Shown piece by piece: positions 3,360-30,243 of a stretch of DNA of 64,000 nt. The translations under genes and the position numbers were made by a program. The DNA lies in assembly GCA_951406725.2 (NCBI GenBank), contig OX597838.1, positions 16,988,001-17,052,000 on the forward strand. The letters run 5' to 3'. Within the stretch, counting starts at the first letter, position 1; each line of letters starts with the position of its first letter. Source of the stretch: Octopus vulgaris. Its lineage: Eukaryota. The notes under the pieces were generated by a model. The model saw only the letters and a program-made list of their open reading frames with translations, made no database searches and was not told the origin of the DNA.

Positions 3360-3524
3360 CGACACACTGTTTGCCATTCTCAAGCGGGCTTTGGTTAAAC
3401 TACCGACAGCAGTTACAATGAAAGCACTTTTTAACTGCTTTTCTTGGACAAATGTTTTTAAAGAAGACACCAGTTCCTGGCCAGGTTTAATCCGTAGAGC
3501 ATAACACTTCATGTCACACATGTT
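3360..3524 (-). CDS. PPC/DUF296-domain protein, coding exon (N-terminal half of the domain)
   Basis: Acceptor ctttcAG (3526-25); donor TCG|GTAAG (3359-58). NMCDMKCYALRIKPGQELVSSLKTFVQEKQLKSAFIVTAVGSLTKARLRMA matches the DUF296 pattern LRL.PGQ.L...L..F........A.I.T.VGSL..A.LR.A. Downstream exons were not found and probably lie left of the window. Confidence 0.85.
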
Positions 3525-8008: not shown

Positions 8009-8409
8009 GGCGCAGGAGTAGGCACAGGAGTGGCTGTGTGGTAAGTAGCTTGCTAACCAGCCACATGGTTCCGGGTTCAGTCCCACTGCGTGGCATCTTG
8101 GCCAAGTGTCTTCTGCTATAGCCCCGGGCCGACCAATGCCTTGTAAGTGGATGTGGTAGACGGAAACTGAAAGAAGCCTGTCGTATATATGTATATATAT
8201 ATATGTGTTTGTGTGCCTGTGTTTGTCCCCCTAGCATTGCTTGACAACCGATACTGGTGTGTTTACGTCCCCGTCTCTTAGCGGTTCGGCAAAAGAGACC
8301 GATAGAATAAGTACTGGGCTTACAAAGAATAAGTCCTGGGGTCGATTTGTTCGACTAAAGGCGGTGCTCCAGCATGGCCGCAGTCAAAATGACTGAAACA
8401 AGTAAAAGA

Positions 8410-8443
<34 letters not shown>

Positions 8444-8839
8444 TCATCATCGTTTAACGCTTGCTTCAGTCTTGATCTGGCAGAGTTTCTACAGCTAGAT
8501 GCCCTTCCTAATGCCAACCACTCCGAGTGTAGTGGATGCTTTTACGTGCCACTGGCATGGGACCAGTCAGGCGGTACAGGCAACGACCTCGCTTGAATCA
8601 TTTACACATGCCACCGGCACAGGCGCCAGTAAGGCAATGCTGGTAACGATGTTGGTGTGGTGTACTCTCTCTGTTAACCTTTCTGTGATTCCACTCTACC
8701 ATTTACGTGTCTATAGTACACTGTATGGAATTTCTACCTAAACCTTTTCAACATATATAACAGGGCTGTTTACCTGAAGGGATAAGCGTCCTGTCTGTTT
8801 TTCTGTTTAGTGGAACTTTGGTCTTTGCTAAATTAAATG

Positions 8840-10659: not shown

Positions 10660-12800
10660 AATTCACCACCTTGGGTTGAAAAGTTGGGGGCTATTGAGAT
10701 ATGCCAGCACGATTGCAACGCTGCCGCGGGTGATAGCAAAGCTGATGCGCTGGAACAGTCAATCGCCCTCACGAGCCTCACCAGTTACCTCTACAAGGCG
10801 AGTTGCCAGTAAAGACAGGAATCTCGAAGTTAGTGAGTCCGAATCCACCAAACGTTTCGAATGCCACAGGATGGAAAATGTAGGCCGACAGATCGCGGTA
10901 TTTCAGGATTTTGTTCCGCTCGGGCGCAACATAAGAGAGGCGATTTCCTCCTTCCTTGCTGGTTCATGTGCAAGAATTGATGGCCTTCGGCCTCAACACC
11001 TCAAGTATGGTATCTCCTTATCGGCCGGTGACGCCGGACTCGAGCTCTTGGAGAATTTGACTCAGTTTGTGAACCAGTTCTCTTCAGCGAACGTACTCCC
11101 TTATATCCAACCACCATTCTTCGGTGCAAAATTATTCGGGCTCACCAAACCCAATGGAGACCTGCACCCCATTGCGGTCAGCTGCACTCTTGGTTGTCTC
11201 ACTGCAATGATGTGCTTACAATCGGTCTCTAGCTTATTGGAGGAGGGATTTTCCCTCTCTCAGCTAGGAGTGGGCACCAAATTGGGATGTGAATCTGCGG
11301 CCCACGCTATCAGAGCCTATACCAACTTGCATTCCTTGTCACTCATGGTCATCCCCAAACTTGACCTTAAGAATGCCTTCAACTCCATCAGACGCGATGC
11401 TGTCCTCAGCTCAGTAAGAGAGAATTCCCACAACTCTACCGCCTTGCATGGCAGGCTTATCGGGAGCCCTCCAATATCTCTTTCGGTGACTAAATCAACA
11501 CCTCCACCTCAGGAGTCCAACAAGGCGACCCACTCGGGCCCGTTCTGTTCGCACTGGGTATTGATGGTATCACTAAGATAGACGTCGAGCTAGACCCCAA
11601 CGTCTGGTATCTCGACGATGCTTGTTTGGGGGGACCTCCACACAGGGTTCCCGCCATGGCTAAGATGATGATTGGGGAACTTAGTCGCCGGGGTCTCCAA
11701 GTAAACAGCTCCAAATGTGAGCTCTGGATCCTCGACCACCCGGTTTCTCAATATCAACCAGCTATTGACCTTTTTGCAGAGTTCTTCTCTTCCATTGCAG
11801 TCCATTCCCCCCATCGGCCTGGTGCTCTCTAGGTGCTCCAATCACTGACCTTGCTTTGAGTCCATCTTCCAGTCGAAGATGGCTACCCTTGAGCAATTGC
11901 TGAAAAATATTGAAGCTATCATATCCCATCAAGGTTTTTTCATATTTAGGAATTACCTCCCGATCCCTAAGCTCCTATATTTACTCAGATTCAGGTCATC
12001 TTACCGATTCCCATCGTGCCTCCAACGCTTCGACAACTTAATCTTTGTGAGACTCGAATGTTTGGTCAATGTCAGACTCTCTCCAGCGTCCAGCGATCAG
12101 GCTGCATTGCCCAAGCGAATTGGAAGTCTTGGTCTTCGTCCCTCTCTCTCCCCTGCTTCCTTTCCTCCACCCATGCCTGCTCCACCCAGTTGAGCAAAAT
12201 CTTCTCCTCTCCAACGTGGACCAGTTCCAACAGGGAGTTGGATGAAGCTCTCCAACTGGAGGGAATTGGGCTTGTCTACTCCTCAAAAGGTGGCGGACTG
12301 TCGGAGTCAGAGAACTTGGGACAGCATAATTTCGAAGGTCACCTTCGACTCCCTCTTCATCCAGTCGGACGAGTTTTCAAGGCGCCGCTTACTGTCTGCT
12401 AACACCAAATACTCAGGTGACTGAATTAATGACATCCCTGTGGCTAATGTTGGTGGCCTACTCAGCTTGGACGAACTTCGTGTCTCCACTTCCCTCAGAG
12501 TGGGAGCTGACGTATGCACGGGTTTGATCTGTCGTTGTGACAGGCTCCTCGACTCCATAAGGCCTGCATGGCCTTTCTTGCCGCCTAAATGCTGGTCACT
12601 TCGCGCGTCATACGAAGTTGAACCTGATACTCAAGAGGAACTTAGCCCGGGCAAACATCCCCTCCATCTTGGAACCATCTGGATTGTCCAGATGTGATAG
12701 GAAGAGACCTGACGGCCTCACCCTGTGCCCCTGGTCGCAAAGCAGATGCCTTGTCTGGGATTCATAGTTAGCGACTCCTTTGCTTCTTCTCACATCCCGA
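10660..12800 (+). mobile_element. Decayed CRE-like non-LTR retrotransposon (RT plus restriction-like endonuclease)
   Basis: Across frameshifts: DGLRPQHLK, KP.GDLHPIAV, QLGVG, KLDLKNAFNSIRR, GVQQGDPLGP, WYLDD (11605-19), ALP.RIGSLGLR, CRC...LHGLSC and RH...EP...KRPDGLT...LVWD. Contains stops and frameshifts; both ends look truncated. Confidence 0.9.
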
Positions 12801-13426: not shown

Positions 13427-14054
13427 GTCAATCAAAAGCTTGTAAGCGAAATTTGATAGACAGAAACTGTGTGTAAAGCCGCCTGAGGAACTGTTCTTAC
13501 TTCCGGATGTAGACTGAAATACATCGCCCGTTTACTTCTAGAATCTGGTCCTTGGGTGACTTTCGTAGAGTCCACCCTGTTACAAGATTTTAGGATTGGA
13601 GTTAACTTCCCTCTCATCCCTTAATTTTAGAAAAGTCTAAACAAAGGTTGCACTCTCTGCCCTTCCTCATTCGACTAAGTCACGAGAAAAGAAAAGAAAG
13701 AAAAAAAATGGAAAGTAATTCTTAACAGAAAGTTCAGGAAAGGATTGACAGCCGGACGCTTCCTCAGTCTTTGTTATCGATTTGATATCAACTGTTGGGG
13801 GTTGTCAAAGGCACTTATTATCAAAGTGATATAGTAAGTAGGAAAGAAATATTATATTATCCACACCTTATGGGTTCAAATGCTTTCATCTATTCGGGGT
13901 TGATAAAAGAAATACTTGGACTCACCCAAGGACCAGATTCTGGACGTAAACGAGCGATGTATATAAGTCTACATCCAAAAGTAAGAACAGTTCCTCAGGC
14001 GGGTTTACACACAGTTTCTGTCTTTCAAATTTCGCTTACAAGCTTTTGATTGAC
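13427..14054. repeat. Inverted repeat, about 130-bp arms (13427-13559 and 13922-14054)
   Basis: GTCAATCAAAAGCTTGTAAGCGAAATTTGA...GGTCCTTGGGTGA; the ORF track shows mirrored TQGPDS...SLTSF peptides. Confidence 0.85.
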
Positions 14055-14644
14055 TCTGGAGTCTATGTAATCAACTTAACCTCGCCATCCGCTACAGCCC
14101 AAATTGCTGGCCTTGTGCTAAAATTTGAAACCATTATTATCCACACCTTTATACTGTGTGGATATTCAAAAAAGATGCAAGACCATTTGGAAAGGATAAA
14201 ATTACTTATTTTAAAGAAAGATAATTCAGACAAGAGATGAGAGTTACGTCCCTTGTCCTAACAATGTCCTTCGCTAAATTTCGATAATTTAAAAAAAATC
14301 GTTTTTGATATATTTCAGTAAACGATGTGATTTGGAGGTTAAATATCTCGGATGTGAGGACATTTATTCATTGATAAAATCTCAAAAGCAATTTCAACCA
14401 AAAATTGAAAATGTTGTGTAGATTCAGTTTCCTAAGAATTCACTGCCAAAAAAAAAAAATAAAAATAATTACATTTTGAGAAAATGTTTCATAAGAAAAA
14501 ATTCACCTTTAAAACTTTTTTACTTTATAAAAATACGAACGTATTAATTTTTTTAAAGGCAATGCATGGCAGGGTTTTATTTGTTATATATATATATCAT
14601 TCCTTAATTGCGGGATCACTATCGTTGTCATTCATTCAGTCCAA

Positions 14645-14693
14645 ATGCCGTCTGTCAACAACGATCTGTCGTCTCCGTCCACGAAAATAACGT
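14645..14693 (+). CDS. PDX2: PDX2 putative coding exon 1 (MPSVNNDLSSPSTKIT)
   Basis: ATG at 14645 and a strong GTAAGT donor at 14694. The exon is 49 nt (phase 1), which matches the 14 nt before the in-frame ATG of exon 2. It may instead be partly 5' UTR, with translation starting at 23075. Confidence 0.6.
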
Positions 14694-15535
14694 GTAAGTC
14701 GGCCGTGACAATTATTTTACCATCATATCCTTTATTATTGTATATAATTAATTAACAACGTAGCTAGGGTGCAGGTTGATGCACTGTTTATATTTTCGAA
14801 GCGAATTATCGTGTAAGGTGCGTGTTTTTGAAGTGAATTGTTTTGAAGGGTGGAAAATGATTTTCTGCACATTACGTAATCCGCAGAAAGGTTGCGATTC
14901 CTTGATCGAACTGTTTCATTTAAATACACCCACAATCATATACCTACACATGAACACAATCATATATAAGAGTACACACAACACGTAAACACACACACAC
15001 ATACACACGCACACACACACACACACACGCATGTATTGATTTGTAGGTATCGGAGTCGATATATAATTTGTGAGTTTCGATTTTCGTTCTAAACACATGA
15101 CTTTCTGTATCTTCAAAATGTTACCACCTTGAGTAGAGTCAAATGAAGGAGTCACTATATTGTCGCTCGTGCTAGAAATAATAGCAAATTCGCCTTCAAG
15201 TTGCACCACACCGCCTTAAAATGGAAGGGACACGTTGGATAGTGTTACAACACTGTACAAAACAAAATACAGAAGCCTCTATTTAGTTAAACAATTGCTA
15301 GAAATAGCAACCAAACCCCCATTGCATTAGAATCTACTGTGTTAAACAAAGGACACATTAGATAATGTGGATCTATAAATAAGACCGGATACTAGGTCAT
15401 CTTTGATCATGGGCCTATTCCAACAGGGTTGACCTGGAGCTAAACATCAAGAGAAGGATGGGATGATCAAGGCTGTAACAATTTTAGATCGGTTCGCATA
15501 GGGCCGACCCGGTGCTCTATAACACGCGATTTTTG

Positions 15536-15802
15536 GGTACTATTTAAGAAGAGTGGTGCCGGTGCACTCACTCGCGTACTTCCGCATCCGCGCTAGCCAG
15601 GTGTGACTAGTCGATCCTAGAACGACTACCTAGCAAAGTAAATAAAACACGAAAACACAAAATAAATTATTATTTTACACAAAGTAAATAAAACACAAAA
15701 ACACAAAATAAATAATTTTTTTTAAACAAAGTAAATAAAACAAAAACAGAAAGTAAGGATCGCGAGTGCACGCACCGGGACCACTCTTCTTAAATAGTAA
15801 CC
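15536..15802. mobile_element. Merlin-like MITE
   Basis: TIR GG(T)TACTATTTAAGAAGAGTGGT.CCGGTGC; 8-bp TSD GATTTTTG. Confidence 0.8.
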
Positions 15803-16337
15803 GATTTTTGTAAACTATGAATCTAAATTGCAACCTCTTGAGGATGACATCGAGGTTCACACAAACTGACTTTTTTATTTTTTAATTTTTTATTGCCCAC
15901 ATAGTTTCTTATTTCTTTATTGCCCACAAGGAGTTAAACATAGAGGGGACAAACAAGGATAGATAAAGGGATTAAGTCGATTACATCAACCCCAGTGCGT
16001 AACTGGTACTTAATTTATCGACCCCGAAAGAATGAAAGGCAAAGTCGAACTCGGCGGAATTTGAACTCAGAACGTAACGGCAGACAAAATACCGCTAAGC
16101 ATTTCGCCCAACGTGCTAACGTTTCTGCCAGCTCTCTGCCTTGAGTTTCTTGACATTGTTTCTATTTAAGGACTATGTTGTGTGCTGCTTGGTGAAGAGT
16201 TGGTTTTAATCTCAAATCTGAATAGTGGTTTGCAACAGAATGTCTCTTAGGAATGCACAATTGTTCTTTACATTAGATATGTTCACCTCTGTAGTATGAC
16301 TTACTCATTGTATGTGCACCAGGTTTTTTTCTGAGGG

Positions 16338-16810
16338 CTCATCATCATCATTGTTCGACCGTGGTCGAGACAATGGAATTTACCACTTCACGGTCCATCA
16401 TAGCATTACGGAGGTCCTGTTGCTGGATGCCTGTATCCCTGGAGATTACATCAGGGTAGGAGAGTGTGCGCCCTCTGGTATTGCGAGTAGATGGCTTCCA
16501 GAGGAGAAGAGTAGAAATTGCCTCGTTTTCAGCTCTACAACAATGTCCAGCAAACTGGACTCTCCTACCTTTCACAAGAGATGACACAGGTGGTAGTTTC
16601 CCATATATTTGCATTTTGGTTGGATGACGCTTCCACGAGAGATTTGAGCTCTCATAAGGAGGCGAGTGTAGGTTCCATCCAACCGCCTCTCAAGCTTCTT
16701 TGATAATGTCCAGGTTTCTGAGCCATATAGTAGAATTGGTTCGACTGTGGCTTTGAAGATTTCAAGTTTGAAGTCTCTACTTAGATTTGATGACCAGATC
16801 TTATGGTATG
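16338..16810 (-). mobile_element. RTE-clade LINE 3' fragment
   Basis: LLYGSETWTL, LDGTYTRLLMRA, RRVQFAGHC, GRTLSYPDVISRDTG; short (GAT)n tail. Confidence 0.85.
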
Positions 16811-18597
16811 AGCACAAGAACAAAGAGAAGATTTATCTACACATTCCATCCATTGTTGCTCAACACAGTTGGTTTTGCTGGTCAATGCCATTGTGTTGAA
16901 TACCAGATCATATCAGATGCTATATTTTGGAGACTTCTCTACCCTAAAACATGATGAAGGCCACTCATCTACACTGATGTTATTATAAGAGATACAGAAC
17001 ATAACATAGTGGATCTGCCAAAGTTAATTGGGATGAAGATTCCTTCTGTAGCATGATATAAATGTATCTTGGTTGTAACCATTTGAAGAAGAAGAGAGCT
17101 GTGTTGTACAATGGCCTTCATTTTCAAGGTGATAGAATGTGATAGGACCTGCTATTTCTTACAGGTCAAATGACTATGAAGTTACTCATGCTTTTGCTGT
17201 TATAAAGAGGCTAGTTTCAATAGATATGTGCATTCTATCTTCCAACTCCATCCTTCTGGTAATGATTCTTCTCTTCATGCTTGACCATTTTCTCAGGGAA
17301 CATTCTTCAGAAATAGCTTTTTGATCAGAAAAGATGGATCTTCTTCCCAATCTGTTAGATAACTTGTTAGTGGAACAGTTTTCTGAAATTTGACCCATAG
17401 AAAAGAATCATTTTAAATGATTTCAGCAGCTCTATATGCCCTCATCTTCATCATTCTTGGTCACAGCTTCCATGTCTTCCAATATTTCCATCCCGATATT
17501 TCCACACATAATCCTTTAAATACCACTCTCATCATCATCAACACCGTTTAACATCCGTTTTCCATCCTAGCATGGGTTGGACAGTTCGACCGGGGTCTGG
17601 GAAGCCAAGAGGCTGCACCAGGCTCCAGTCTGATCTAGCAGTGTTTCTACTGCTGGATGCCCTTCCTAATGCCAACAATTCCGTGAGTGTAGTAGGTGCT
17701 TTTTACATGCCACCAGCACAAGGGCCAGAGGAGGCTGGCAATGGCAACGATTGGTTGGTGCTTTTTATGTGCCACTGGCACAGAGGCCAGAGGAGGCTGG
17801 CAATGGCAACGATTGGTTGATGCTTTTTACATGCCTGGCATGTGTGTGTGTGTGTGTTCATGTTTGTGTCGTCATGATAGTGTCACTGTCATACAAGCAG
17901 TGTCGTTCCTTTCCAATATTCTATATAAACATGTCTGGCCCTGGGGGAATGTTACTTTGCTTAGAAAGCGGTAGCAACAGGAAAGGACATCTGTTTGTAG
18001 AAAATATGCCTCAATAAACCCTGTCTGACCCATGCAAGCAAGGAAAAGAGTATTTTTTCTTTTATCTTTTACTTGTTTCAATCATTAGACTGTGGTCATG
18101 CTAGGGCACTGCTTTGAAGAATTTGTAGTTGAATACATCGACCCCAGTACTTATTTTCTGTTAAGCCTGCTATCAGTCTGTTTTTGCCAAATCACTAAGT
18201 GATGAGGATGTAAACACACCAACACCCAGTGATGGTGAGGGGACAAACAAACAGAGAGGGAGAGAGTGTATGTGTGTGATTGTGTCTTCTTGACAGCACA
18301 TAGTAGTTGTAAATGTCACTATCATACTAACAGTATTCTGCAAAATCATGTTTGGCAATGGGGAAAATATTACCTTGCTTGGAAAAAGGTGAGGGTTTAC
18401 AACAGGAAGGGCACCCGGCAGTAGAAAATCTGCCTCAGTAAATTCCAGTCGACCCCTGAAAGCATGGAAAAGTGGATGTTAAAGTGATGATGATGACTGC
18501 CTATGAATTCACAAAATTAATATGATGTGAAGTAATAACAGGTCTGTGTGTCCTGAAAGAATGCAGCAGAATTGGGTTGTTTTTTTTTAACCTTTAA

Positions 18598-19128
18598 CCC
18601 TTTTGTTACCATGTTTCTGTTGAGATACTCTGTGTTTCTTTCAATTAATTTTAAATATAACAAGGAATTAAATAAAATAACTTAGTTATCATTCAGCTAG
18701 TGTTAAGAACGTAAATTGCGACTAAGGTTTGGTGGAAGATTTTAATTCAAAACTTATGAAAACAAGACATTTGTACTACAGAGCCAGAGGCAGTTTCAGC
18801 CAGGTTGGTATGAAAAAGGTTAAATATAACAAGGAATTTAATAAAATAACTTAGTTATCATTAAGCTAGTGTTAGGAACATAAATTGTGACTAAGGTTTG
18901 GTGGAAGATTTTAATTCAGACATTTGTACTACAGAGCCAGAGGCAGTTACACCCCAGTTGGTATCAAAAGGGTTAAATATAACAAGGAATTTAGTAAAAT
19001 AACTTAGTTATCATTAAGCTTAGTGTTAGGAACATAAATTGTGACTAAGGTTTGGTGGAAGATTTTGAAAACAAGACATTTGTACTACAGAGCCAGAGGC
19101 AGTTACAGCCCGGTTGGTATCAAAAGGG
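18598..19128. mobile_element. piggyBac-type (TTAA) MITE with a triplicated right half
   Basis: TTAA|CCCTTTTGTTACCA ... TGGTATCAAAAGGG|TTAA; three internal units of about 155-170 bp. Confidence 0.85.
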
Positions 19129-19813
19129 TTAAAAAAGAAGGAAAAACAACCCAACCATTATCTTAATGATTAATTTTAGTTAAGTAAGTCAAAGAAGATA
19201 ATATTGTAATTAAGGTTAATTAAAAATAGAATGTAATGAAGATTAAATCTGATCTTGGAAACACAGGATAATTCAGGACCTGTTTAGTGTTATTAGACTT
19301 TATCAGTAAAGTCTGAACTGTTGCTAGATTTATCTGAATGAATACCCAGTGATGTAATGACTTAAAACAGAACAGATTATTTTGTGACCTTTTTTTTTGT
19401 TGTAAATATTTATGAATGTTTGTTACTGTCTTCAAAATTCTGAGTCATGTTGAAAAAACAAAATTAACACTAGATTTGAAAAATCTGCTACCCATCATCA
19501 ATGTATCTAAACTGAAAACTACTTCCCATTTTAGTTTTGACACTATTGAGACCCACTTTTGTCTTCACCAAGGCAATTTGTTTGTTTTTGTTTTTGTTTT
19601 TACTTGTTTCAGTCATTTGACTGCGGCCATGCTGGAGCACTGCCGTTAGTCGAGCAAATCGACCCCGGGACTTATTCTTTGTAAGCCCAGTACTTATTCT
19701 ATCGGTCTCTTTTGCCGAACCGCTAAGTGACGGGGACGTAAACACACCAGCATCGGTTGTCAAGCAATGCTGGGGGGGGGGGGACAAAAACAGACACAAA
19801 AACACACACACAG

Positions 19814-19860
<47 letters not shown>

Positions 19861-20779
19861 CATATATACGACAGGCTTCTTTCAGTTTCCGTCTACCAAA
19901 TCCACTCACAAGGCATTGGTCGGCCCGGGGCTACAGCAGAAGACACTTGCCCAAGATGCCACACAGTGGGACTGAACTTGGAACCATGTGGTTGGTTAGC
20001 AAGCTACTTACCACACAGCCACCAAGCATGTATATTTGAAAGTACTTGCTCTCTTGTCATAATAACTGAAGTAGCTCTAACTCTATATTCTGTTCTATTA
20101 ACCTAAATCATGAATTAATTTCATTGGTTAAGTGAAGTGTTTATTAAAGTTGGACCTTGGCTTTCAATCACCTAACACTATTCATCTCATGTTATTTTGG
20201 GGGTTTGTTTTTCTGCTTTCAAACAATGTAATTTATCTGTATAATTTCATCCTTTCATCTCGAGCCACCAATTCAAATATTATTGAAACCATTCATTGTC
20301 TACATCCATTTCCTCCACCGCTGGGGTCTTGATATGAAACTGAGGCATTCTTTCGATATAGCTCGACAAAATCAAAACATTTCACTTCGGGTATTTCCAT
20401 GGGTTGTGGAGTATAGATATAATGAAGCTGGTGTGGCCTCCTGCCTTGCCAGTCCCCAGTCAAACTGTCCAATCCAATCCATGCCAGCAAAGAAAACGGA
20501 CATTAAAAAGCACCCACTACACTCACAGAGTGGTTGGCGTTAGGAAGGGCGTCCAGCTGTGGAGGCATTGCCAGATAGGACTGGAGCCTGGTGCGGCCTT
20601 CTGGCTTCCCAGATCCCCGGTCGAACCGTCCAATCCATCCCAGCAAAGAAAACGGACATTAAACGATGATGATGATGACCTACAAAGTCCTATTGGATAC
20701 TTGGCATGACAGATTGTTTCAGCAAGTCCAGATAAATGGGATCAGCCTCAGTACCATCAAAAAGAATTGTCCAATTCTT

Positions 20780-21000
20780 CTGAAGATAAGCCACTTCATA
20801 CTGTAACTCCTAGTAAATTAACATAACGTTCCTTCATAACTTGTGGGTTCTCATGTGCTGAGAGTAGATGCAATTGTGACTGGTAGTTGAACCATTTAAT
20901 TTAAATATGGCCTCATCACTCCAGACAACCTTTGTTGGAAAATATGCATCTTCTACACATTTTGCCAAGTACCACTCACAAAACTCCACACTCCAGTCCA
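20780..21000 (-). mobile_element. Tc1/mariner transposase fragment
   Basis: FCEW...[17 protein letters not shown]....HNC, the region of the first catalytic Asp. Confidence 0.65.
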
Positions 21001-22032
21001 GATCATATTGAAAGGCTGCACTGGAGTCCAATGCTTGCTTTAGCATGGTCACTTTGGCTGGATGCCCTTCCTAAAACTTACACTTTATAAGAGTGTACTG
21101 GGTGCTTCTTTTCTTTTCCCCAGTACAAAGGATATCTCTGTAAAACTCACAAAACTTAAGATTCTCTTTTACTGATTAAAAACCACAGAAAATTGCGAGA
21201 CAGCTTTATGCTAGGTTTTTGCGGAGATGTACTTGCATAGCAAGTGATTTGATCTGAGATCGTGTGCTGAAACGAAAACAATTGCAGCGTGGAAGGTGTT
21301 TGTAAGCCATTTAAGAAACACACAAAAGCAGTTCGATTAGGTGTTGAGCAGTTAAGATATAAACCTAGTTTCTTGTTGCAGAGAAACTACATGGCAGTTT
21401 CACATTTTATACGAGTGCATTGGAGTAATTTGGGTGGAGCTGGAAGCATGGTGGTGACAAGTTTGTCAGAGTGGGCCTCAAAGCACCAAAAAGGGTGAAT
21501 AGGTGAGGATGGAGACAGAAGAGTGGGGATGGTGGGTGAGTAGATACTGCAAGTGTGAATGGGGGAGAGTGAGTGAGGGCTGGCTAGAGATGGAGGCAGG
21601 GATGAATGTAGTGAATGGGGAATAAGAGCGGTGGGGTGATTGATGATAAATATGGGTTAAAGAAAGTTTGGGGAGAGGATGTGATGACTGGTGGTACAGA
21701 AATGGGGGAAGAATAGCAGAATAAATAGATGAAGGATGAGAGAAAGGGAGATGTTGAGTAGATGATGGATTGGTAGGTTGGAAGAGTGTGGAGACTGAGG
21801 GATGTATGCAGAAATGTTAGCACGCAGGGCGAAATGCTTAGCAGTATTTCGTCTGACTTCAAATTCCGCCAAGGTTGACTTTGCCTTTTGGGATCGATAA
21901 ATTAAGTACCAGTTATGCACTGAGGTCAATGTAATTGACTTTATCCCTTTGTCTGTCCTTGTTTGTCCCCTCTATGTTTAGCCCCTTGTGGGCAATAAAG
22001 AAATAAGAGGTGGAAGTGGTCAGACATATATA

Positions 22033-22231
22033 CAGGGTGCAGCAGAAATACCTCCCACATTTGAAAGGTTGACAAAAGGAAAAATAAACAACATTTATGA
22101 AAAATTAATTTCACTGTTGTTTAAACAAAGAGTTACAGTTTTTGTTCATTAGCTAAATGCAAACATCATTTGCACTTGCGTAAGTTCTAGGTGAAAGTTT
22201 AAAATGTGAGAGGTATTTCTGCCACATCCTG
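22033..22231. mobile_element. Tc1-type MITE
   Basis: ta|CAGGGTGCAGCAGAAATACCTCCCACATT ... AATGTGAGAGGTATTTCTGCCACATCCTG. Confidence 0.7.
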
Positions 22232-22574
22232 CAGTAGTGAGTCAACAGGAAACGTTTTAAGGAGAGGGAGAGATAATCTGTAGCAGAGAAGGATGATCAA
22301 TGTAAAATATGGATAGAGAGGGACAATGGTTAAAAATGATTGATAGCTCTCAAAGAAAGTGGTTCTGGGCATTGGAGAGTATATCAGCTGAATTGTTGTT
22401 AACAACAAACAAGATGAGGACAAATATCCATCAAATGTAAATACTGTAAATAATTTTCCATCTCTTAGATATAGAACTGTATTCATGCTCTTTATTGATA
22501 TCTAGAATATTTATCTATATGAATTGTTTTTGATGAAAATTTGAAAATGATGACATTCTTCTCAGCAGTAAATA

Positions 22575-22972
22575 AATGGAATAGTTGTATACTGTCAATC
22601 TAACACAAACGTAACAGTAGGGGGTACACCACCGCTGTTTAGCCCTAGGAAGCCTCGACGCCTCCTGATGGCTTTGACACATTTTTCCTGTGTCCTTATA
22701 TACATTTACGAAGGGGAGACATATACCCCCAGCCGCCCGGGCTGCATCTAGGGACACGTGTTTTAGGATGATTGTCCTTCGTCCCTACGTGTCCCTAGAT
22801 GCAGCCCGGGCGGCTGGGGGTGGTTGTCTCCCCTTCGTAAATGTATATAAGGACACAGGAAAAATGTGTCAAAGCCATCAGGAGGCGTCGAGGCTTCCTA
22901 GGGCTAAACAGCGGTGGTGTACCCCACTACTGTCACGTTCGTGTTAGATTGACAGTATACAACCATTCTATT
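22575..22972. repeat. Near-perfect 400-bp palindrome (fold-back element)
   Basis: Arms of about 185 bp (22575-22759 and 22787-22972) with a loop of about 27 nt. It produces mirrored ORFs on both strands. Confidence 0.95.
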
Positions 22973-23060
22973 GCCCCACCACCGTACATGTCTCTTACGA
23001 GAGATTTAGAAATTTAGTATTTCTAATAAATAAATGATGACTTCTTTATATTCCATTTAG

Positions 23061-23422
23061 CAAATCAATCAAATATGGATGAGCAGTGTGAAGAGCAATT
23101 ACATATCGGAATTCTTGAAATTCAGGGTGGCTTTTCTGAACATAAGGCTGCTCTGATAAAAGCTGCACAACTTATGGGAAATGAAGCAATGCTAAAAATC
23201 TATTCTGTACGCAAAGCTGAAGATCTGCTTTCCAAACTTTGTGGTTTGATTATTCCTGGAGGTGAAAGTACTACGATGGGTCTCTTCATCACACGCAACA
23301 AAATGGCAGATGCCCTACAAGACTGGATCAAAGATGAGAAACATATTGTGTGGGGAACTTGTGCTGGCCTGATCATGTTAGCAAATCAATCAGAGAAACA
23401 GAAAATTGGCGGGCAGTCTTTG
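23061..23422 (+). CDS. PDX2: PDX2/SNO/PdxT glutaminase subunit of PLP synthase, exon 2
   Basis: Acceptor ttccatttAG at 23059-60; donor TTG|GTAAGA at 23423. Motifs IGILEIQGGFSEH (consensus GVLALQG.F.EH), GLIIPGGESTT and VWGTCAGLI (catalytic Cys). Confidence 0.95.
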
Positions 23423-23825
23423 GTAAGATATTTGATATTTGATTTCTCATTGTAATAATCAGAATGTACAGTAATGGAGTTGAAGAAATTTATTTATTGA
23501 ACTAAATATCTTAGAGTATTTAGTTTTGGTTCCTCTACAGTTTGGAAGGTTGTAAAGAAAAGGTGGAATCAGATTTTCCTTTCAAGGCTGCACCAGGCCC
23601 AGTCTGATCTGGCAGTGTTTCTACGGCTGGATGCCCTTCTTAATGCCAACCACTCTGTGAGTGTAGTAGGTGCTGTTTACGTGTTCAAAAGAACTGTGTT
23701 AGTTAAGAATTTTATTGCACAAAGTTTGAAATAATATTTTTTTCCTTTCCCGCTGCACATTGACATTACAACTTGGAGTGGTTGTGACCCGATGGGTTAT
23801 GGAGGGTACATCTAGTAATAATAAT

Positions 23826-24480
23826 AATTACGTTTATATATTTGTTGTGCAAGATTTTTTATGTGAAGTCGTGTGTTGAAACAGACATTGTTGTATTTCG
23901 GAATGGTCATTTTGCCAGTTTAGCCAATAAAAATACACGCACTATTAGTGTCCTTCAGCTTCTTGCTAGCCTGGCTATGGCTCACGCTATTACGTAAAAT
24001 ACACCAATCCGACCGTGGCCGTTGCCAGCCTCGCCTGGCACCTGTGCAGGTGGCACGTAAAAAGCACCCACTACACTCACAGAGTGGTTGGCGTTAGGAA
24101 GGGCATCCAGCTGTAGAAACATTGCCAGATAAGACCGGAGCCTGGTGCAGCCTTCTGGCTTCCCAGATCCCCGGTCGAACCGTCCAACCCATGCTAGCAT
24201 GGAGAACGGACATTAAACGATGATGATGATGATGATGATTTGTTGTGCAAGATTTTTTTTATGTGAAGTCGTGTGTTGAAACAGACATTGTTGTATTTCG
24301 GAATGGTCATTTTGCCAGTTTAGCCAATAAAAACACACGCACTATTAGTGTCCTTCAGCTTCTTGCTAGCCTGGCTATGGCTCACGTTATTACGTTTATA
24401 TATTTGTTGTGCAAGATTTTTTACAATGCGTGTGTTTTTATTGGCTAAACTGGCAAAATGACCATTCCGAAATACAACAA
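23826..24480. repeat. Direct duplication (about 155 bp) flanking a SINE, followed by an inverted partial copy
   Basis: 23843-23995 is nearly identical to 24240-24395; 24428-24480 is the reverse complement of part of it. Related copies at 25920-26010 and 33040-33330 (tandem pair). Confidence 0.8.
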
Positions 24481-24499
24481 TAATAATAATGATAATAAT

Positions 24500-24732
24500 A
24501 ATTTCTTTACTACCCACAAGGGGCTAAACACAGAGGGGACAAACAAGGACAGACAAAGGGATTAAGTCGATTACATCGACCCCCAGTGCGTAACTGGTAC
24601 TTAATTTATCGACCCCGAAAGGCTGAAAGGCAAATTCAACCTCGGCGGAATTTGAACTCAGAACGTAGCGCCAGATGAAATACGGCTACGCATTTCACCC
24701 GGCGTGCTAACGTTTCTGCCAGCTCGCCGCCT
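24500..24732 (-). mobile_element. SINE family B ((AAAGAAAT)n tail). Other copies about 15905-16142, 21825-22007, 34073-34438, 39600-40003, 42434-42651, 44625-44785, 48519-49192, 61888-62060
   Basis: GGCGGCGAGCTGGCAGAAACGTTAGC...GAGTTCAAATTCC...GGTCGACTTTGCCTTTCATCCTTTCGGGGTCGAT. Confidence 0.9.
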
Positions 24733-24789
24733 TGTAATAATGATAATAATAATAATAATAATAACAACAACTCGTTTATATATTTTCAG

Positions 24790-25128
24790 ATTGGTGGACT
24801 TGATATTGTGGTTTCTCGTAACTATTTTGGCCGTCAAGTGAACAGTTTCCAAGGGAAGGTGAAGATTGTGGATAAAAGTCTTCTCAAAGAAAACACACCT
24901 AGTTATTTTGAAGGAGTCTTTATCCGTGCTCCTGCAGTTGTCAAAGTAAACAGCCCCGAAGTCTCTACTCTTGCTGTTCTTCCACATTCGTCAAAAGAAA
25001 AATCTGACACAATTGTAGCCGTGAAGCAGAAGAACATAATAGGCACAGCATTCCACCCCGAGTTAACAGAAGACCTTCGGTGGCACGAATATTTTCTGAA
25101 AATTATCCTTTCTGTACAGAATCATTGA
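24790..25128 (+). CDS. PDX2: PDX2 exon 3 (last coding exon)
   Basis: Acceptor tattttcAG at 24788-89, phase 0. IGGLDIVVSRNYFGRQVNSF, FIRAP and AFHPELT (catalytic His and Glu); TGA stop ends at 25128. Confidence 0.95.
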   Translation: MGGLDIVVSRNYFGRQVNSFQGKVKIVDKSLLKENTPSYFEGVFIRAPAVVKVNSPEVSTLAVLPHSSKEKSDTIVAVKQKNIIGTAFHPELTEDLRWHEYFLKIILSVQNH

Positions 25129-25177
25129 AAATGTTTGATTGCAATTTGGAATATGATATTTTTGAATGTTTGATGAT

Positions 25178-25183
25178 ATTAAA
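25178..25183 (+). terminator. Candidate PDX2 polyadenylation signal (ATTAAA)
   Basis: ATTAAA about 50 nt after the stop, followed by T-rich sequence. Confidence 0.35.
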
Positions 25184-25516
25184 ATTACAATAACAATACC
25201 TTTGATATGTATTTTTATTATTTTCATACCAGAGTTTTAGCTTTGGTTCACCTGAATTATTTGTATTGCTTCGTATATACTTTTATGGGAGGCGCAATGG
25301 CCCAGTGGTTAGGGCAGCGGACTCGCGGTCGTAGGATCGCGGTTTCGATTTAACCTTACACTAGAATTTTTTTTTTTTTAACACATAAGAAAACAAATCA
25401 AGAAAGCAAATAAAAAGGTTACAAGATCGAACCCGGCAGCCTATAAGGCCCAGCAACTATCTTTTATTTAAAGGATATAAATGCTGTTTTTAAATACGCT
25501 TTACTCTATAAGTAGT

Positions 25517-25900
25517 GGAGGCGCAATGGCCCAGTGGTTAGGGCAGTGGACTCGCGGTCGTAGGATCGCGGTTTCGATTCCCAGACCGGGCGTTGTGAGT
25601 GTTTATTGAGCGAAAACACCTAAAAAAAGCTCCATGAGGCTCTGGCAGGGGATGGTGGTGATCCCTGCTGTACTCTTTCACCACAACTTTCTCTCACTCT
25701 TACTTCCTGTTTCTGTTGTACCTGTATTTCAAAGGGCCGGCCTTGTCACTCTCTGTGTCACGCTGAATATCCCCGAGAACTACGTTAAGGGTACACGTGT
25801 CTGTGGAGTGCTCAGCCACTTACACGTTAATTTCACGAGCAGGCTGTTCCGCTGATCGGATCAACCGGAACCCTCGTCGTCGTAACCGACGGAGTGCTTC
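25517..25900 (+). mobile_element. SINE family C (tRNA-Arg-like head, resembling octopus OR SINEs). Other copies about 1910-2300, 25288-25352, 29222-29520, 29585-29850, 36530-36743, 38645-38950, 41758-42045, 49350-50125 (three), 58530-58730
   Basis: GGAGGCGCAATGGCCCAGTGGTTAGGGCAGCGGACTCGCGGTCG...GGTTTCGATTCCC. Confidence 0.9.
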
Positions 25901-26214
25901 CATATACTTTTATGAATTTCTGTTGCAAGATTCTTGATGTGAAACCGTGTGTTGAAACAGACATTGTTGTATTTTGGGATGGTGATTTTTTTATTTATGC
26001 CAAAGAAACACACTCACACTATATATTTATTCTTCACTTTTTTAATACTATTTTTATTCTAACTCATGTCCATTGTCTGGAAATCTTTCGTCACACATCT
26101 GTGACCTCTTCAGCAAATGGACTAAATGGAGCAGGAGCACACACAAGGACAGAAAGTGTTGCTGAAGGGATCACAGAAAGTGTTACTGAAGACAAAAGAT
26201 GTCTGGACAATAGA

Positions 26215-27423: not shown

Positions 27424-30243
27424 CAGTGGTTCTCAAACATTTTTTTCTCTGGGGCCCACTTTTCGTATCCCCCAAATCCAGGCCCACTGGAATGAGGAAC
27501 TCTCTTATTAGCACTACTGATTTAATATAAGTAGCCAATTTTATGTTGCCTTGAAACGGTTAATGTAGAGAAAGACGGACAAATTCGGCCTGTTGCATAA
27601 ATCCTTCTGTCCCTAAAGAGTTAAATTCTGTCTGTGGTATAGAAATTTCGAATTTTTCCAACGGCTTGCATGCGGCCCAGACATCTTAAGTCGTAAATTC
27701 CCTCTCTTCTCGATTTATAGTACATTTCTTTTATCTGTGAGGACTTCATTTACTGCAGAAAATCTAGCTTCAACCAACCACATTGTAGAAAACTATAAAA
27801 AAAAGGGCACCACCTTTTCAATCCACCTTTTTGGAGTCTCCCCATCGAAAGATTGTTTTCCTTAAGTTTGACTAAATCTGCTGCAATGATAGGATCGATG
27901 CCTTCCTCTCTTAAAATATCAAAACACCAGCAATCCACTCTGGAGGTTTTATTTCGATGACATCCTTGAACCGTTGATTGATATCTTCTCTTAAGCTTTT
28001 CAAATGATTTGTACAGCTTGCGATGACATCGGTGGAAAGAGAGGATTTTGCCAAGTTGCCGAAGAACGCAAACGCCCTATTCTACAGATGAAGCTGCCAA
28101 GGGTTTAATATGATAACGAAAGCGCAAATTTTTTCTTTGCAAGGTTTTATTCAGTTGGTTGACATGCGAAACCAGATCAGCCAAGTAGAAAATTTTAGTC
28201 TTTGTATCATCTTCATTCATGGCTGAAAACAGGTCATTGGCCTTACCTTTCTGTTTCCTTGTGCAGGCTTGCGATTTCATAAGATGAATGAAGGACAGAA
28301 CCATGCTCCACATTTCAGCTAGACGAAAAAGGGAATTGCTTTTGGAGAGTCATCGAACCTCGGTGTGCATAAGCAGTGTCTCGTGATCTTCGTTTTCGCA
28401 TAGCTTTTGAAAAATACAGTCGTGAAGGGCATTGGCTTTGATGAAATTGATCGTTGAAACAGCAACTTCTAATGCCATCTCCATATCGCCACCAAGGGAT
28501 TTTGAAGTCAGATCTTCCCGATGAAAGATGCAATGGATGGACAACAAATACGGAGCAACTTCTTTGAATTTTGCTATGAAAATATTGTGTATGCCGGTCA
28601 TCGACACAAGCACTATCTGTCGCGATTTGGAAGAGGTTTTCCAGGGGGATTCCCGTCTTTTGAAGATATCCATAAACAGCTGAAAATATAGTTTCACTTT
28701 TTGTATCCGGCAGTTTCTTCATGGAGAGCAAGTCTTCAAGCATCTTTGTTTCGTCAACATATGGAACATACGCCAGTAGCAAAGAGGACTTACTAATGGT
28801 AGTCTCGTCGATTTGGAACGAGAACTTCGAGACTCTTAGTGTCTCAACCAGCTGTTCTTCGTGGTTTTCCGCCGTCTCATCTTGTCTGCGCTTGACAGTA
28901 TCATTTGAAAGGGAGATTCTTTTTGTAAGACAGTTGCGGCGTCTTACAAAAAAAAGTTCATGCTTGAGGGCAAAAAACCAAGTAGTAAAACTCTTGTTAG
29001 TAATTGCGCGTAAATGGCATTTTATTTGAGCCTCTTGTAGCCATGGTAGGAAGTTGATAGCTACAGAAAATAGAATGTAAAAATCAGAACTTTGTGAGAA
29101 AAGAAATCACTGTCACATTGAGAACAGAAAACGTAGATATAGAGACCAAAAAACTGAATTCTAATAACTTTTAAATTTAGTGCTTCTTATCGCTCGGGAA
29201 CTATTCAGTGGAAATGTTTGTTCCTTCTCGAGCCACGCCTGGCTCATTAGGGCCGGTTTCCCGGTTTCCTTGGCGTACAGGTTCCCCACCTGGACGGGAC
29301 GCTGGTCCGTCGCAGGTGAGCTGCAAGATGCAGGAGGAAAGAGTGAGAGAAAGTTGCGGCGAAAGAGTCAGCAGAAGTTCGCCATTACCTTCTGTCGGAG
29401 CCGCGTGGAACTTAGGTGTTTCACTCATAAACACACACAAATCGCCCGATCTGTGATTCGAACCCGCGATCCCTCGACCGCGAGTCCGCTGCTCTAACCA
29501 CTAGGTCATGTGCCTCCACACACAGAAATATACAGTATGTAATTGCAGCCAATAACTGGGCTTAACGATATTATATTCCATATAGTAGGATCGCGGTTTC
29601 GATTCCCAGACCGGGTGTTGTGAGTGTTTATTGAGCGAAAACACCTAAAGCTCCACCACGCTCCGGCAGAGGGTGGTGGCGATCCCTACTGTACTCTTTC
29701 GCCACAACTTTCTCTCACTCTTTCTTCTGTTGGCCTGCTCGCTTGGCCAGCGTGGTGGCGTCATTTGAAGGCTAAAACAATGCGAAGTGCATTGTGACCA
29801 GCGATGTGTAGCAACATCTGATAGCCTAGTCGGTCGCAATGATCACAGTGATATTCCCATATTATGCCGCATATATTCCAAAAACACTTGCATATGATGT
29901 CGTAAAATTGCTTCTTTCAAATTCAAACGGTCAATACAAGGAGCAGACGATGTGAGCCTGAGCAGAATGTCGCAATTAATGATATCAAAACGTTTTCAGT
30001 TTTTAATAAGCTTGCAAAATTATTGGACAGTCAACATACAATCACACTTGCCTTTAAACTCTGGTGCGCACGTATAAGCGTTTTGATCAACAGCCTGAGG
30101 TGTTTGCTCTGGCTAACCACAGCGGCTGCCAAAAGTAAATAAATAAGGTCACGTCTAGATGTGCACACTGAGCACAAGCTCCACACGGAACGCGACCTTA
30201 TAACACACCTCAAAAATTCTGAGGTCAATTTTGAGAACCACTT
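27424..30243 (-). mobile_element. Decayed hAT (Charlie/Buster-like) transposon with nested SINEs
   Basis: TIRs CAGTGGTTCTCAAA (27424) and TTTGAGAACCACT (about 30230-42). Broken transposase: FQIDETT, LLAYV.YV, IHCIFHRE, LLMHTEVR, YLADL...NQLN..LQ. Confidence 0.8.

Follow-up and report, generated by a model that had tools for sequence, protein, structure and literature searches.

An intact, spliced PDX2 gene in Octopus vulgaris and its likely partnership with PDX1 in vitamin B6 synthesis

We analysed a 64,000-nucleotide stretch of the Octopus vulgaris genome (assembly GCA_951406725.2, contig OX597838.1, positions 16,988,001 to 17,052,000 of the forward strand), hereafter the window. It carries a gene for PDX2, the glutaminase subunit of the synthase that makes vitamin B6 as pyridoxal 5'-phosphate (PLP). 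Our analysis shows that this PDX2 is single, intact and spliced. It likely supplies the glutaminase for a functional PLP synthase of two subunits, the other being encoded by an intact PDX1 gene on another contig, C5.

The PDX2 gene and its product

The three coding exons of PDX2 (49, 362 and 339 nt) join into 750 nt that encode 249 amino acids followed by TGA, with no internal stops. The gene is laid out as follows:

14645..14693, plus strand: PDX2 exon 1, with the ATG, residues 1-16 plus one base; an N-terminal extension, poorly conserved
14694..23060, plus strand: intron 1, 8367 nt, GT..AG, phase 1
23061..23422, plus strand: PDX2 exon 2, residues 17-137, with GILEIQG, the PGGEST oxyanion motif and GTCAG containing the catalytic Cys117
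23423..24789, plus strand: intron 2, 1367 nt, GT..AG, phase 0
24790..25128, plus strand: PDX2 exon 3, coding part, residues 138-249, with RNYFGRQ, FIRAP, FHPEL (His226, Glu228) and the stop
25129..25198, plus strand: exon 3, 3' untranslated part, a minimum extent taken from contigs of sequencing runs X6 (to 25198) and X1 (to 25188), since assembled contigs cannot reveal the true 3' end

An earlier note on this DNA had described an intact, intron-containing PDX2 of 249 amino acids with its Cys-His-Glu triad and glutamine-binding arginine motifs preserved. That description holds in every particular: exon borders, GT-AG sites, phases and all named motifs are exact (GILEIQG at residue 33, PGGEST at 82, GTCAG at 115, RNYFGRQ at 147, FIRAP at 181 and FHPEL at 225), and C117, H226, E228, R147 and R183 are in place, together with the whole of PGGEST (P82-T87). 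The product agrees with a public protein of Octopus vulgaris (P0247, NCBI) at 249/249 residues and with the O. sinensis 'probable PDX2' (P0001) at 245/249, and differs from the O. bimaculoides model at 7 of 228 residues; by protein identity the animal belongs to the vulgaris group of Octopus.

Exons 2 and 3 each match the Pfam family SNO (PF01174; E 2e-21, 77.1 bits, and E 1e-22, 81.1 bits; cut-off 27), and a profile search of the genome, in which four candidates were scored, yielded no other SNO match. The product passes the NCBIfam equivalog TIGR03800 (168.8 bits, cut-off 105.55) and lies below the cut-off of the narrower PdxT model NF010050 (PRK13526; 97.9 vs 181). The triad, PGGES, R147 and R183 are invariant across 49/49 aligned PDX2 rows, as are Q38, E43 and E85. 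We take Q38, E43, E85, R147 and R183 to correspond to Q10, E15, E48, R106 and R135 of B. subtilis, presumably interface or glutamine-binding residues. In the alignment with PDB 4ADS chain G, His226 falls on the site changed from His to Asn; an H196N substitution is described in the accessible part of PMC8313854.

A second ATG (Met22, at 23076-23078) stands in a stronger start context than the first (A at -3, G at +4). The O. bimaculoides PDX2 model begins at Met22, and several molluscan proteins start with Met-Pro like the long form. It is possible that PDX2 has two starts.

Splicing, host origin and constraint

Sequencing runs X1, X6, X12 and X16 were compared over 22900-25300; their RNA status is guessed, none being recorded as RNA. 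Contigs of three of the four runs (X1, X6 and X12, from three studies) skip intron 2 exactly, which bears out the junction 23422/24790 if RNA is presumed, and the X16 contig lacks this junction and reads into intron 2. The junction 14693/23061 is supported by one loose end and by identity to the public models: an X6 contig carries, before 23061, 24 nt that by eye match the 3' end of exon 1 (its final 24 nt) at 23/24 letters.

Repeats common to 12 loci of contig C5 make up 32% of intron 1 and 57% of intron 2; in exons 2 and 3 their share is 0%. One element was delimited:

23992..24239, plus strand: SINE-like (short interspersed nuclear element) host repeat, 248 bp, (ATG)n tail, inside intron 2

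Of its best copies (40 of 1371 candidates scored), 38 are 97-99% identical and occur on many contigs. The earlier description of introns full of host SINEs stands as far as genome-wide host repeats in both introns are concerned, but the class is a candidate label that fits the size and tail of the element. Rfam returned 10 matches over 14000-26000, all under gathering scores and none to a tRNA head. Because the introns of PDX2 carry genome-wide repeats, contamination is excluded as the source of the gene.

Differences between the window and related contigs were mostly silent: 7 of the 9 listed for exon 2 in the X16 contig are synonymous (ratio of nonsynonymous to synonymous differences, pN/pS, 0.08; binomial p 0.0004), as are 5/5 in exon 3 of one X12 contig (p 0.001). 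The proposed dN/dS comparison accordingly found a synonymous excess, in small numbers, and this appears to be the pattern of a gene under purifying constraint.

The partner gene PDX1

The earlier note had seen no PDX1 in the window and had pointed to a genome search for it. PF01680 gives five collinear matches, all on contig C5 and nowhere else in the genome (six candidates scored), and they belong to an intact gene with both catalytic lysines:

G000:C5:29897790-29867490, minus strand: PDX1, eight exons, all introns GT..AG, 1035 nt, 344 aa

The first intron measures ~19.8 kb. The product is identical to protein P0241 at 344/344 residues, with 3 differences vs O. bimaculoides, and exceeds both relevant NCBIfam cut-offs (NF003215, 472.9 vs 395; TIGR00343, 460 vs 438.45). 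By alignment, the counterparts of Lys110 and Lys178 in Arabidopsis Pdx1 are Lys98 and Lys166, given as its two imine-forming lysines in the portion of PMC8313854 available to us. The protein scores closer to PDX1.3 (418 bits) than to PDX1.2 (313 bits) and is, by score, not of the PDX1.2 pseudoenzyme type. An AlphaFold model of the monomer has a mean predicted local distance difference test (pLDDT) of 77 with a core above 90, and its barrel superposes on solved Pdx1 structures at a root-mean-square deviation of ~2 A; residues 1-30 and 314-344 fall below 50, so that the model is uninformative on the tail. Prediction of the PDX1-PDX2 complex scored 0.78, yet one of three controls reached 0.71, and the result is counted neither way. 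Full-length relatives of PDX1 sit on contigs of 1.2-1.9 kb, a size from which they are likely to be transcripts.

Ancestry of the two genes

The PDX2 tree comprised 55 hand-picked rows, from named animals and from samples of the fungi, the plants and the bacteria; eukaryotic rows without a name were omitted. A branch with support 100/99 separates all 30 animal rows from the rest, and the 19 molluscs group together (96/86), with the octopus beside Argonauta and the cuttlefish. Approximately unbiased (AU) tests rejected a grouping of cephalopods with bacteria (p-AU 8e-7) and with fungi (p-AU 4e-6). On the choice between vertical retention and horizontal transfer that the earlier note had raised, the tree therefore favours vertical descent. 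The PDX1 tree (27 rows) unites the cephalopods at 100/98 and the molluscs plus one coral at 100/99.

Named PDX2 matches include at least 19 molluscs, 6 cnidarians, 2 sponges, 2 copepods and one annelid, three species of Octopus, Argonauta and one cuttlefish each having an orthologue; no vertebrate is named among three lists of 120 best matches, which are no census. The patchy retention in invertebrates that had been claimed is seen in that many marine invertebrates keep PDX2, but it is not special to the octopus. On the evidence of the trees, both PDX2 and PDX1 were likely inherited from animal ancestors, and PDX2 could still trace back to a transfer that reached the common ancestor of all animals.

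Molluscan sequence features

The earlier note had drawn attention to GILEIQG in place of the consensus GVLALQG. The variant is present, but it is no oddity of this copy. Its Glu occurs in 25/228 PDX2-type sequences examined and in 14 of the 19 molluscs in the tree (all 5 cephalopods, 6 bivalves, Haliotis, Gigantopelta and Patella), and in 0/35 readable non-mollusc rows of that tree. At this site the chiton has Gly and three caenogastropods have Ala, with one mollusc unread. The adjoining Gln38-Gly39 is invariant in aligned PDX2 rows. Judged by this distribution, GILEIQG is an old molluscan trait and not damage or decay.

PDX1 has molluscan features as well. The tail W[ND]AT[LI] is found in 12/13 named molluscan rows and an N-terminal V[TM]NL in most, and the octopus protein has an IWNATL tail and a VTNL motif. 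In Ciona and in an amoeba a WATRE sequence occupies a comparable position, and its Trp may be the counterpart of the molluscan tail Trp. An Atlas search with the PDX1 tail gave only matches under 0.9.

Gene order and B6 salvage

PDX1 and PDX2 share a contig in 6/6 non-cephalopod molluscs with both genes known. Their accessions are consecutive in Gigantopelta (RefSeq) and Haliotis rufescens and their locus tags two apart in Mactra, and in Littorina, Mercenaria and Liolophura the sole sign of co-location is contigs of equal size. The two genes lie on separate large contigs in this octopus (C5 and C25), O. bimaculoides and Argonauta; the cuttlefish scaffolds are too short to place PDX1 relative to PDX2. 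By this indirect evidence, the gene pair appears to have been split in cephalopods, and its neighbourhood could serve as a marker for dating cephalopod genome rearrangement.

Salvage genes are present in the same genome, namely a C-terminal exon of pyridoxine phosphate (PNP) oxidase at G000:C1:77598873-77599034 and four collinear exons of pyridoxal kinase at G000:C2:130282763-130312017, which are weak singly and of which two were confirmed against PDB. An octopus without B6 salvage was considered and dropped: the kinase exons had been missed at E 0.001 and appeared as four collinear matches at a looser threshold. Because the salvage genes are present too, B6 made de novo would supplement the dietary supply and not replace it.

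Other features of the window

A PCC/DUF296-domain gene (PF03479, E 1e-10) has a coding exon at 3360-3524 on the minus strand, transcribed away from PDX2. Its last exon was located at L020 ~8230-8480, an acceptor precedes the window exon, and there may be a further 5' exon toward PDX2. Immediately upstream of PDX2 there was no sign of a coding exon in head-to-head orientation; Pfam matched 2/39 frames, both elsewhere. Positions 11494-12694 hold a broken retroelement of the type without long terminal repeats (non-LTR), with an RVT_1 fragment (E 7e-5, under the cut-off) and further frame pieces. At 27753-28718 (minus strand) are frame pieces that by eye resemble a decayed hAT-type transposase; they have no Pfam match.

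Discussion

We consider it very likely, from the two gene products and their relatives, that the octopus makes PLP de novo with a PDX1-PDX2 synthase. By analogy with the family (described in those parts of PMC11237949 and PMC8313854 that were accessible), PDX2 would dock on the PDX1 ring and be active only then. Cys117-His226-Glu228 would hydrolyse glutamine and the released ammonia would pass through a tunnel to PDX1, where Lys110 would bind ribose 5-phosphate and Lys178 would then take the intermediate, with addition of glyceraldehyde 3-phosphate giving PLP. A hexamer or dodecamer ring of PDX1 decorated by PDX2 would be expected in octopus by the same analogy; the structure predicted here is that of the monomer fold. 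The earlier suggestion that the animal may synthesise its own B6 is strengthened by a PDX1 intact in the genome, a spliced PDX2 and a tree that favours vertical descent. The proposed link to the neurotransmitter decarboxylases and to neurotransmitter synthesis was dropped: nothing in the data points there, and sponges and bivalves keep PDX2 too.

Several observations weigh against a working octopus synthase of common descent. Our search found no published assay for an animal enzyme of this lineage. The C-terminus of the octopus PDX1 lacks the RGW end of fungal and bacterial rows, and the Pdx1 C-terminus contributes to oligomer contacts according to the accessible text of PMC8313854. Departures also occur at conserved columns: in PDX2 at 1/64, Q158, which is Gln in all 6 cephalopod rows and Glu in 42/43 non-cephalopod rows, and in PDX1 at 2/165, Leu150 and Val154, which are changed in 3 octopod rows and are Phe in 33/35 and 35/35 other rows, respectively. 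The PDX1 tree is the weaker one, with animals at 82/31, a coral within the molluscs and an amoeba beside the animals, and both trees were built from rows without unicellular relatives of animals and with bacteria that are only Chloroflexota or unnamed. The splice evidence from the runs covers PDX2 and not PDX1 of the same species, and that the runs are RNA is itself a guess.

It is conceivable, if improbable, that both genes are kept and expressed in a remodelled complex whose PLP output is small or conditional, or whose main role is another one, such as the stress or antioxidant response after which SNZ of sponges was originally named. The mollusc-type PDX1 tail with its V[TM]NL motif and the cephalopod or octopod changes at three conserved positions (Q158, L150, V154) would suit such remodelling, as would the presence of salvage genes in a carnivore that should obtain B6 from food. 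However, all catalytic residues are kept, the conserved-column departures are just those three, both proteins pass their equivalog cut-offs, and the accessible part of PMC8313854 describes the C-terminal sequence as not conserved among working Pdx1 enzymes. That PDX2 is an orphan or decaying glutaminase without a working partner seems very improbable. The window does lack PDX1 and the two genes do lie on different contigs, but the intact PDX1 elsewhere largely refutes this explanation, splicing and the purifying pattern speak against it, and a working Plasmodium pair is likewise placed on two chromosomes (PMC8313854, same part). We give equally little credence to horizontal transfer of PDX2 into cephalopods, or to contamination. 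The pathway is missing from well-studied animals according to the sections of PMC7954711 that we could consult, and the trees sample few outgroups; on the other side stand introns with genome-wide repeats, orthologues across the Octopus species, Argonauta and cuttlefish, a topology that follows animal groups, and AU tests that reject bacterial or fungal sisterhood.

Beyond the very likely synthesis of PLP by the octopus pair, a broader scenario may be sketched tentatively. Molluscs could own a PLP synthase variant whose assembly or activation is controlled differently from that of microbial and plant enzymes, and octopods would then be B6 prototrophs with an ancient pair split by cephalopod genome reshuffling; on present evidence we find this rather doubtful. 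The variant so imagined, a PDX1 with a tail rebuilt around IW[ND]ATL and an added N-terminal V[TM]NL and a PDX2 with Glu beside an interface Gln, is an equally speculative proposal.

The octopus B6 genes are neither octopus-specific nor new, as they are already annotated and the pathway is kept widely in marine invertebrates. A 2021 review, in the part available, denies animals the ability to make B6, yet names 'some sponges' for this pathway, citing Seack 2001 (PMC7954711). Lan et al. 2021 scored B6 as host-made in the snail Gigantopelta aegis and compared 18 other molluscan taxa (PMC7895826, accessible text); the supplements list both genes, with snail PDX1 detected by proteomics in three animals, at a single peptide count apiece. 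Fig. 5 of that paper may already include a B6 score for an octopus. The accessible part of PMC13212745 refers to a scallop figure scoring B6, and those of PMC6879607 and PMC8789280 hold nothing further on the question. In full-text literature, with subscription journals mostly outside its coverage, we found nothing on the octopus genes, on a molluscan enzyme assay, on the molluscan PDX1 tail or on the split gene pair. A working octopus enzyme, if true, would be a counter-example to the view that animals cannot make B6, in a large-brained and farmed animal; it would matter for the design of feeds and would open to test the question of which animals lost B6 synthesis and when. The news would lie in an enzyme assay and in the mollusc-type tail, since databases already carry the gene and an earlier study had inferred the capacity in a mollusc.

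Comparison with known systems

The octopus pair resembles the known Pdx1/Pdx2 synthases (PdxS/PdxT, SNZ/SNO; PDB 2NV2, 2ISS, 4ADS and 5LNT). PDX2 shares their class I amidotransferase motifs and triad, and PDX1 has the barrel fold, both catalytic lysines and the GTG loop of the PLP synthase that is independent of deoxyxylulose 5-phosphate (DXP). Unlike those enzymes, the octopus PDX2 has a 28-residue N-terminal extension, Glu35 (mostly Ala) and Gln158 (Glu elsewhere), and its 344-aa PDX1 has the V[TM]NL motif and an IWNATL-containing tail in place of the RGW end. The PDB matches of the two octopus proteins include none named as an animal protein.

Existing database records for these proteins are automatic annotations, both for PDX2 (XP_029657998 of O. 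sinensis, and CAI9740693 of O. vulgaris, identical to the window product) and for PDX1 (CAI9722621 / XP_029636357, 'SNZERR', the record to which the C5 product is identical). The closest precedents are the animal-encoded pairs of the sponge Suberites domuncula (SNZ/SNO) and of Gigantopelta aegis, whose PDX2 proteins both fall in the same animal clade as that of the octopus. Gigantopelta carries the two genes close together (ctg152-4.14 and -4.18), unlike the octopus, where they lie on C5 and C25.

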